Positions 28,851 to 30,182 of a stretch of DNA of 64,000 bases are shown one piece after another; the first letter of the stretch is position 1, and each line of letters opens with the position of its first letter. A program made the position numbers and the translations under genes. Source of the DNA: Gammaproteobacteria bacterium (lineage in GTDB: Bacteria; Pseudomonadota; Gammaproteobacteria; UBA4575); contig CBDCUI010000009.1 in NCBI GenBank assembly GCA_965222615.1, forward strand, positions 1,024,001-1,088,000, read 5' to 3'. A model generated the notes under the pieces. That model saw only the letters and a list, made by a program, of their open reading frames with translations, did no database searches and was not told the DNA's origin.

Positions 28851-28977
28851 TCTAAAAACGTTAGCGAAGCAGCCAAGACAAGGCAAAAATGTCCGAACAA
28901 GCGGAGTTTACATATAAGTAAATGAGCACTGTAGGGACATTTTTAACGCAGTATTGGCAACGCAGCTAGTTTTTAGA
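28851..28977. repeat. ~127 bp palindromic (MITE/RPE-like) element
   Basis: Terminal IR TCTAAAAAC/GTTTTTAGA; nested IRs AAAAATGTCC/GGACATTTTT and TTTAC/GTAAA. Confidence 0.7.
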
Positions 28978-29102
28978 CGTTAAAGCGAAAATGTACAACA
29001 AAAATTCATGTAGACCTCACCCACTAGACATTGAACCGAAAATGCACCACTAGGGATTCTTGTACTACCCACCTCTTACACATTAAATCTAAAGTGTACG
29101 AC
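28973..29102 (-). repeat. Three tandem, synonymously recoded copies of the ychF 3-prime end (att-like array, period 51-52 bp)
   Basis: 29076-29102 (gene), 29024-29050 and 28973-28999 all encode [12 protein letters not shown]; spacers share GGTGnGnnnTACAnGAAT. Confidence 0.9.
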
Positions 29103-30182
29103 ATCTCCTTCCTGCATCACATATTCTTTACCTTCAAGTCGCCATTTCCCTTGTTCTTTAGCCCCTGCTTCACCTTTAGCATCTATATAATCTTGGTAAC
29201 TTACTACTTCTGCTCGAATAAATCCCTTTTCAAAATCGGTGTGAATTTTTCCTGCCGCTTGAGGCGCTGTGGTCCCTTTGGAAATGGTCCAGGCCCTTGC
29301 TTCTTTAGGGCCCGCAGTGAAAAAGGTTTGTAGATTCAATAATTCATAACCCGCTTGTATTACTCTATTTAAACCTGGCTCATCTAGGCCTAGCTCATGT
29401 AAATATTCTTGTTTTTCTTCATCATTTAATTGTGCAAGTTCTGCTTCGATCTTTGCACATACTGGAATCACTTGAATCGATTTCTCCTGAGATGATTTTT
29501 TTTGAACAAACTCTTCGAGTTTTTTTAAATATGGGTTATTTTCAAATCCATCTTCAGTCACATTAGCTATATAGAACACGGGCTTTCGCGTGATAAGATG
29601 CAGATCTTTTAGAAGATGTTCTTGTTCTTTATCTATGTTAAAACTAACCGCCGGCTTTTCATTCTCTAAATGATTTTTTAGCTTAGTGTATACATCAAGT
29701 TGCGCAATAGCTTCTTTATTACCTGATTTCGCCACACGTTCTACTTTGCTAATAGCTTTTTCTATCGTTTCCAAATCCGCCAAGATCAATTCAGTATTAA
29801 TCGTTTCCAAATCTGACAAGGGATCAATCTTGCCATCCACATGAATAATGTTTTCATCGTCAAAGCATCTAACCACATGTGCAATTGCGTCAGTTTCACG
29901 CACATGACCTAAAAATTGATTACCAAGGCCTTCACCTTTTGATGCACCTGCAACTAAGCCTGCAATATCAACAAACTCGATCGTGGTAGGGATAACTTCT
30001 TTAGACTTGGCAATTTGAGCAAGTGTATCGAGTCGAGAATCCGGTACAGGAACAATGCCGATATTAGGATCGATTGTACAAAAAGGATAATTTTCTGCTG
30101 CAATTTCTGTCGCAGTCAAAGCATTAAATAATGTTGATTTTCCAACATTCGGTAGGCCCACTATTCCACATTTAAAACCCAT
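29076..30182 (-). CDS. ychF: Redox-regulated ATPase YchF
   Basis: [54 protein letters not shown]. Confidence 0.98.

Follow-up and report, generated by a model that had tools for sequence, protein, structure and literature searches.

Why does a housekeeping gene carry spare copies of its own end? In the genome under study (G000), ychF is followed on the minus strand by two further copies of its last eight codons and stop, set apart by short spacers, and a first-pass annotation had read this array as stacked minimal att cassettes left by successive integrations. We analyzed the array within its window, by which we mean the whole 64,000-nt stretch of DNA, and coordinates refer to that stretch unless another contig or locus is named. 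The copies are real, their number varies among relatives, and like arrays are common in G000. On balance, the array is probably a stack of retired gene ends that arose from serial duplications of about 50 nt at the stop codon, with no recombinase or mobile cassette involved.

RESULTS

Three ends of ychF

The features of the locus are collected in Table 1. The tail unit consists of 27 bases (eight codons and the stop), and the repeat spacing in G000 is 51-52 nt. Between copies 1 and 2 there are 8 base differences and between copies 1 and 3 there are 6, all of them silent, and the coordinates, translation and base comparison confirm the original observation of three ychF tail copies with synonymous differences only. 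The gene order on the minus strand is prs, rplY, pth, ychF and then tRNA-Met (CAT), and the tRNA gene follows ychF in 29 of 30 related loci, the contig of the 30th ending at that point. When the whole genome was scanned with a degenerate tail pattern, all 3 matches in G000 fell at the ychF array, and the reversed tail pattern, used as a control, gave 0 matches in 56 family genomes. Tandem Repeats Finder (TRF) makes no call at ychF because the likeness is limited to the tails.

Table 1. Positions of the features at the ychF locus and of stop-spanning arrays on other G000 contigs.
Feature	Sequence	Positions	Strand	Description
ychF	window	29076-30182	-	368 aa, YchF/OLA1-type ATPase; Pfam MMR_HSR1 and YchF-GTPase_C
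Tail copy 1 (working end, last 27 bases of ychF)	window	29076-29102	-	VVHFRFNV and TAA
Spacer A	window	29051-29075	-	25 nt
Tail copy 2	window	29024-29050	-	VVHFRFNV and TAG; frame +1 relative to ychF
Spacer B	window	29000-29023	-	24 nt
Tail copy 3	window	28973-28999	-	VVHFRFNV and TAA
Dispersed palindromic repeat (MITE- or REP-like)	window	28853-28973	.	Directly abuts the stop of tail copy 3
tRNA-Met promoter-like site	window	28803-28832	-	10/12 consensus matches
tRNA-Met (CAT)	window	28707-28783	-	Conserved downstream neighbor of ychF
Stop-spanning array, L045	C8	1011024-1011180		
Stop-spanning array, L046	C7	798764-799110		
Stop-spanning array, L047	C7	10324-10428		
Stop-spanning array, L048	C8	685944-686058		
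Stop-spanning array	C7	262116-262201		
Stop-spanning array	C7	208255-208376		
Stop-spanning array	C9	216996-217075		

Three other kinds of sequence were considered for the array and rejected. For a structured RNA or an attC-like hairpin, the fold of positions 28960-29130 was no better than that of shuffled sequences (z -0.18), the tRNA was the sole Rfam match on the locus, and a scan of the array found no terminator-like site. In a CRISPR array the repeats would be alike, and here they differ at 6-8 of 27 bases, with no Cas family among the 22 ORFs scanned. A diversity-generating retroelement was set aside as well, since the differences include C/G, C/T, T/C and G/C and no reverse transcriptase was found among the same 22 ORFs.

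The first-pass annotation had named a mis-assembly of strain variants among the results that would refute its claim. Out of 24 sequencing runs listed, 21 contained small shares only, and the contigs of the remaining 3 were compared with the window. Logan contigs from these three runs, which represent two samples of one study and possibly the source sample itself, match the array over its full length without any difference (X22 record 4, 28756-29235; X23 record 13, 28843-29240; X24 records 20 and 22, overlapping). Because these independently built contigs reproduce the array, mis-assembly is unlikely. A copy-number variant was absent among the compared contigs, which as contigs cannot reveal rare variants.

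Elsewhere in the window, positions 18191-19886 hold a pair of genes for a RiPP-modifying enzyme of the MbnB/TglH/ChrH type and a DUF2063 protein, positions 12378-15434 encode an inverse-autotransporter-like beta-helix protein, and a chemotaxis cluster (cheR, cheB, cheD, two MCPs and cheA) occupies positions 33514-43296.

Copy number and decay among relatives

The family is taken here as the whole order in the genome collection, with 56 species genomes and ychF in 52 of them at E <= 1e-50, and 30 related ychF loci were compared for tail copies. Intact or nearly intact extra tails stand at five of the 30, with three copies in G000 and two each in G001, G018, G011 and G014, where the extra tail of G014 has one changed codon. 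The unit period in these five genomes is 51-53 nt and the spacers measure 24-26 nt. By inspection, decayed copies account for at least eight more cases (G006, G010, G012, G013, G015, G016, G017 and the outer copies of G015): G006 has one copy with three changed codons, and G010, G012, G013, G016 and G017 have a badly decayed unit each. Three units are present in G015, worse with distance from the gene, a decay as expected of free DNA, and the nearest of them has a derived silent state in common with the working copy of that genome. No extra unit was seen in G007, the sister of G013. A count of units across relatives had been proposed as a check on the original reading, and it varies from 1 to 4 at ychF.

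The arginine codon of the tail gives the order of the copies a direction. Both spares of G000 use CGG or CGC (one each), like G001 and the outgroups G022 and G023, and the working copy uses AGA. Judged from these sequences, the outer copies are older gene ends, often decayed. The idea of successive integrations therefore survives in one part, as a stacked record of successive events, which the one to four units, the outer decay and the arginine codons bear out; the integration mechanism itself is not supported.

In the 56 family genomes no tail copy was found away from ychF, and multiple matches were all 51-52 nt apart. A pattern of adjacent tails (a tail end, 15-45 nt and a tail, the first tail restricted to AAT for asparagine) was also searched for in about 185,000 species and gave 3 other records, all in this clade and matching G001, G011 and G018. 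In a metagenome collection the same pattern gave one contig, the AAT requirement under-sampling G+C-rich genomes. This contig (L044, 969-1030), from an unrelated AT-rich organism, has a perfect 53-nt tandem duplication covering the last 17 codons and stop of ychF, and it is either a fresh event of the same kind or an assembly slip.

Like arrays at other gene ends

The last eight residues of 3881 long ORFs were compared with stop-ending peptides within 200 nt downstream, and this tail scan returned ychF and two further loci, namely a Y-family polymerase gene with 3 extra units of 50, 51 and 50 nt and an msrA gene with 6 further units of exactly 53 nt each. TRF, run on the whole genome, called 12 arrays with a period of at least 40, of which 6 lie inside long ORFs, 6 take in an ORF end and none falls wholly between genes; glnS (49 nt) and a second msrA (50 nt) are among the arrays of the second group. 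At least seven other G000 gene ends carry stop-spanning units of 33-64 nt (the Y-family polymerase, two msrA, glnS and three unnamed ORFs). This excess of stop-spanning arrays reflects either a mechanism or merely the harmlessness of such duplications. A full-text literature search showed no account of such stop-spanning arrays in bacterial genomes among the titles that it listed.

The polymerase array is also found in other genera, with 2 copies in G018 (L053) and 3 copies in G020 (L057), the outer ones of the latter decayed. In G000, the working copy and the first extra copy end in GHRRTV, the second extra copy ends in GHRKTV, as the gene does in most relatives, and no stop is left in the third. 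Differences are again silent only, 4 of 4 in G000 and 4 of 4 in G018. By inspection, the outer polymerase tail of G018 equals the working tail of G022 at 21 of 21 bases, and 4 silent changes mark the inner working copy. The polymerase gene of single-copy relatives shares an ATGA with the gene behind it, as overlapping stop and start, and the outer copy of G018 keeps this overlap. The long msrA array belongs to G000 only, with one decayed unit in G001 (by inspection). Since stop-spanning duplication of about 50 nt is common and not tied to one tail, we take it to be a general process and not the work of a ychF-specific recombinase.

We propose that tandem duplications or unequal exchanges of about 50 nt would repeatedly span the ychF stop codon, with slippage or unequal recombination as the probable mechanism. 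At each event the copy nearest the gene would stay the working end and the former end would move outward, and such duplications would be tolerated because the first copy keeps the gene whole. Serial duplication is favored because the copy number varies, the outer copies decay and other gene ends have like arrays. Also counting for it are the recurrence of the units, their outward polarity, the 53-nt duplication in L044, and the lack of any recombinase, cargo or distant tail in the searches reported here.

Spacers and the edge of the likeness

Part of what was found at the spacers counts against serial duplication. The head-to-tail units, the constant period of 51-53 nt and the varying copy number are all as slippage would give them, but whole units are not alike and the sequence after the last unit is unlike the spacer. 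The tails alone are alike, whereas a plain duplication short of saturation would leave likeness in the spacers too, and the left edge of the likeness always falls at the same codon, a fixed edge such as an att core gives.

Spacers A and B are weakly alike (z about 3 against shuffles), and the motif that the first-pass annotation had seen in both is indeed present in register. The "echo" of the spacers that it described inside ychF was not recovered, as spacer against upstream coding sequence gave z of -0.5 and 0.1. Compared with the coding sequence before them and with the stretch that follows the array, 6 spacers from 5 genomes showed no likeness (own-genome z -0.9 to 1.1), and searches for the spacers elsewhere in G000 found no match beyond chance 10-12-mers. 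Between genomes the likeness of spacers is weak as well, with z of 2.5-3.1 for G000 spacer B against G014 and 1.8-2.0 for spacer A against G018.

The search for a mobile element

The original reading would make the copies att scars or att-only cassettes from elements that integrate into the ychF 3′ end with a replacement end, possibly mobilized in trans. The likeness between units is confined to the 27-nt tail and stops sharply at unrelated flanks, as in attL and attR. The sharp 27-nt limit fits an att core; nothing else at the locus fits the att reading. Parallels for its single steps do exist in the accessible parts of two published accounts, in which recoded replacement ends resembling those at ychF are brought by e14 at icd/icdC (PMC13626634) and tandem accretion leaves att-only remnants, the CIMEs (PMC5704250), and a varying unit number is what accretion would give.

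Against this, a Pfam search of 22 ORFs between positions 12378 and 43296 found no integrase, resolvase or transposase, and the earlier statement that neither integrase nor cargo is present at the array holds within these 22 ORFs (window 12-43 kb). No element body stands between the tails here or in the 56 family genomes, and these genomes contain neither a distant tail copy nor the recombinase-bearing, ychF-targeting island that had been proposed as a check. The adjacent-tail pattern, restricted to AAT, occurs in just 3 other species of about 185,000, all in this clade. No tail-only fragment was found in 50,697 phage or 72,556 plasmid records: matching records cover at least 80% of the 45-residue query in 22 of 22 phage cases and 76 of 77 plasmid cases. 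Viral contigs gave 2 tail matches, both of them the host ychF and tRNA-Met flanks of islands in the tRNA-Met gene. As a substrate, a double-stranded circle of 51 bp would be implausible, and the unit shows no folding (z -0.18). Similarly built arrays follow genes whose tails are unrelated to that of ychF. With no recombinase, no distant tail and no tail-only phage or plasmid fragment in these searches, the minimal att cassettes are not upheld, and we regard an att origin as very improbable.

The ychF 3′ end was also considered as a known integration target and rejected; two of the reports found, as far as their accessible text goes, place a pneumococcal prophage linked to ychF upstream of the gene and not in its 3′ end.

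The tRNA gene next door has observations of its own. An 8-nt word, a short direct repeat, lies 40-70 nt after tRNA-Met in L012, L014, L026 and L035, with a variant in L015 (by inspection), and may mark where an element inserted at the tRNA ends. In G+C-rich gammaproteobacteria (L039, 1640-2659, and L040), too, ychF is paired with tRNA-Met. At L039 an integrase gene follows the tRNA, and therefore the tRNA gene, not ychF, is the integration site there.

Why the spares stay clean

A further objection to serial duplication is that old, intact spares have almost no changed codons. Relative to the working copy of the same genome, the six intact spares show 7, 6, 3, 3, 2 and 5 differences in 24 sense bases and 0, 0, 0, 0, 0 and 1 changed codons, and all keep the stop. 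Working tails differ from genome to genome at a median of 4 bases, and ychF and pth are nearly saturated at third codon positions in comparisons among these genomes. The spares are therefore not young, because their silent divergence matches that between the working tails of different genomes.

A decay model was tested that allows the working copy nothing but silent changes and puts no restraint on decay of the spare. For the two G000 copies P came to 0.0017 and 0.0083, and for the other three copies whose codons are all unchanged it lay at 0.08-0.18. The joint figure for the five unchanged copies is 10^-7.7, which is overstated since the copies were picked on that very feature and treated as independent. 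On this comparison of codons, free decay of the intact spares is rejected, as silent divergence has reached the inter-genus level with codons and stop kept, and the suggestion that the copies evolved as if under coding selection is borne out by their silent-only differences.

We also weighed whether the array could be chance or artefact, either strain mis-assembly or a decaying duplication that happened to stay silent. Very many windows were screened, so outliers are expected, and no more than 2-3 differences are present in three of the five clean copies (P 0.08-0.18 each). Yet the contigs of three runs agree, the assemblies of four other species look alike, the two G000 copies have low P values, and the polymerase locus repeats the pattern; we give this explanation hardly any credence.

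Translation of the spares was considered as a general explanation and rejected, for their frames are mixed (+1, +1, +1, 0, +1 and +2 relative to ychF) and an in-frame start is absent in 3 of 6. Tail copy 3, with only 2 codons open in frame upstream, is untranslatable as it stands. For tail copy 2 the case is different in G000 and G001, and this copy could be the C-terminus of a +1-frame micro-ORF. Both genomes have a 26-codon +1-frame ORF that runs from the Asp-Val codons to the stop of copy 2 (in G000, window 29103-29110 and 29024-29102, minus strand), with an ATG within the Asp-Val codons before the tail and a Shine-Dalgarno-like stretch upstream. The 26-codon ORF is absent from G018, G011 and G014.

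Possible gene flow between lineages

Clean spares would also be expected if gene ends were displaced by gene flow, that is, if tail and spacer units were spread between lineages by homologous recombination. The body of ychF would serve as left homology and the tail as a short right homology, so that a foreign end would arrive and the resident end would be retired intact. Such displacement would explain the perfect coding of the spares together with silent differences of inter-genus size, as well as the weak likeness of spacers across genomes (G014 and G018). The YchF tree conflicts with the genus labels, G000 not being sister to G001 and G018 falling outside the rest of its genus (support 88-97), and the repeat-bearing segment downstream of ychF in G000 is common to G018 (79-82% identity) and unalignable with that of the congener G001 (16-18%).

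However, a recent import of the 3′ part of ychF was not seen, since no relative stood out among the 19 compared and the four quarters of the G000 gene are about equally far from all 19 (third-position identity 30-61%). Recombination at about 25% divergence with a right homology of 27 nt would be very rare, and G000 would need at least two such events. The likeness to G018 could also come from independent repeat insertions, as copies of the repeat within G000 are themselves 75-91% alike. As an account of the whole array, displacement seems to us rather unlikely.

The downstream repeat and the tRNA-Met promoter

The palindromic element at ychF is about 120 nt long, and its outer inverted repeat extends into the stop codon of copy 3. 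Its core of about 80 nt (28876-28954) matches 27 other places in the 3.1-Mb genome at 75-91% likeness, and some copies of the element have longer inverted ends. Judging from the stop of copy 3, the element may have inserted at a TA within CTAG. A copy of the element sits at the same tail/element junction in G018.

Where relatives have a single tail copy, the tRNA-Met promoter has its -35 box starting 5-15 nt past the ychF stop, and the tail is therefore the upstream region of that promoter. This position gives a further reading, in which the spares would be kept as DNA sites (operators or upstream activating sites of the tRNA-Met promoter) for a factor blind to the wobble base. The primary site of such a factor would lie in the coding tail, and duplicates would add sites on the same helix face, as the unit length of 51-53 nt amounts to about five turns of the helix. 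Tn7 TnsD and homing endonucleases recognize coding sequence in a wobble-tolerant way. The spares of five genomes keep their non-wobble bases and stop with silent sites saturated, and at the polymerase locus the outer copy, which adjoins the start of the following gene, is the conserved one. On the other hand, the repeat of about 120 nt separates the last tail from the promoter in G000 and G018, the middle copy of G000 adjoins nothing, many relatives let their copies decay, and a DNA site would not predict that the stop is kept as a stop, whether TAA or TAG. We know of no factor that binds the ychF tail. An array kept for such a function is, on these sequence features, an unlikely explanation.

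Whatever process made the array, the clean state of its spares calls for an explanation of its own. It may reflect a constraint that mirrors coding, imposed by a DNA-binding factor or by occasional exchange with the working end, and we put this at somewhat short of an even chance; in the first version, the coding tail, which lies immediately before the tRNA-Met promoter, could have given rise to the site, and wobble bases would not matter to the factor. With a slightly smaller chance, the spares served as gene ends until not long ago, and recombination with an unsampled, diverged relative brought in the present one. The remaining, smallest share of our confidence we leave without an explanation.

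DISCUSSION

The ychF array stands near several known systems and apart from each of them. According to the accessible part of the published account, e14 and phage 21 in icd leave a displaced icdC fragment, and the element brings a replacement gene end (PMC13626634). The likeness to icd/icdC lies in a spare housekeeping 3′ end downstream of the gene, mostly silent or conservative changes and sharp bounds (PMC13626634), whereas a 15-kb prophage with its integrase stands between the two ends there and only 24-25 nt, with no recombinase, stand between them at ychF. At the 3′ ends of streptococcal genes, tandem accretion and CIMEs have been described, in which several direct repeats of the target's end follow one another as they do at ychF, some of them around elements that lost their own genes (PMC5704250, as far as accessible). 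In contrast, neither an element nor an integrase was seen at ychF. CIMEs are kilobases long and depend on the integrase of a related ICE.

Minisatellites that overlap a stop codon are similar in their head-to-tail units, constant period and varying copy number, and in that the first copy keeps the gene intact, but the units at ychF are alike only in the coding tail and in the manner of translated sequence. Wobble-tolerant recognition as by Tn7 TnsD at glmS and the homing endonucleases would yield a DNA site that is conserved at the first two positions of each codon and free at the third; however, the scan of 22 ORFs showed no such gene, and target duplication is not part of those systems. Orphan C-terminal modules are stacked downstream of cdiA, rhs and pilin genes, where they can be exchanged with the expressed gene. 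Those modules vary in protein and serve variation, whereas the ychF copies all encode the same eight residues.

A further possibility, which we consider doubtful, is that the spares are under codon-like purifying selection across genera, as an exchangeable reserve or as wobble-blind binding sites, and maybe at the polymerase locus too. If the spares are under selection, they would be untranslated DNA with a coding signature, which would mislead gene finders and dN/dS tests, and they would hint at an unrecognized role for repeated gene ends beside a tRNA promoter.

If instead the spares are fossils, as serial duplication would have it, the array is a rare readable record of the renewal of a gene end. 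Repeated gene ends need not mark mobile elements, and the duplications of about 50 nt at stop codons that run through this clade deserve attention as a mutational signature.
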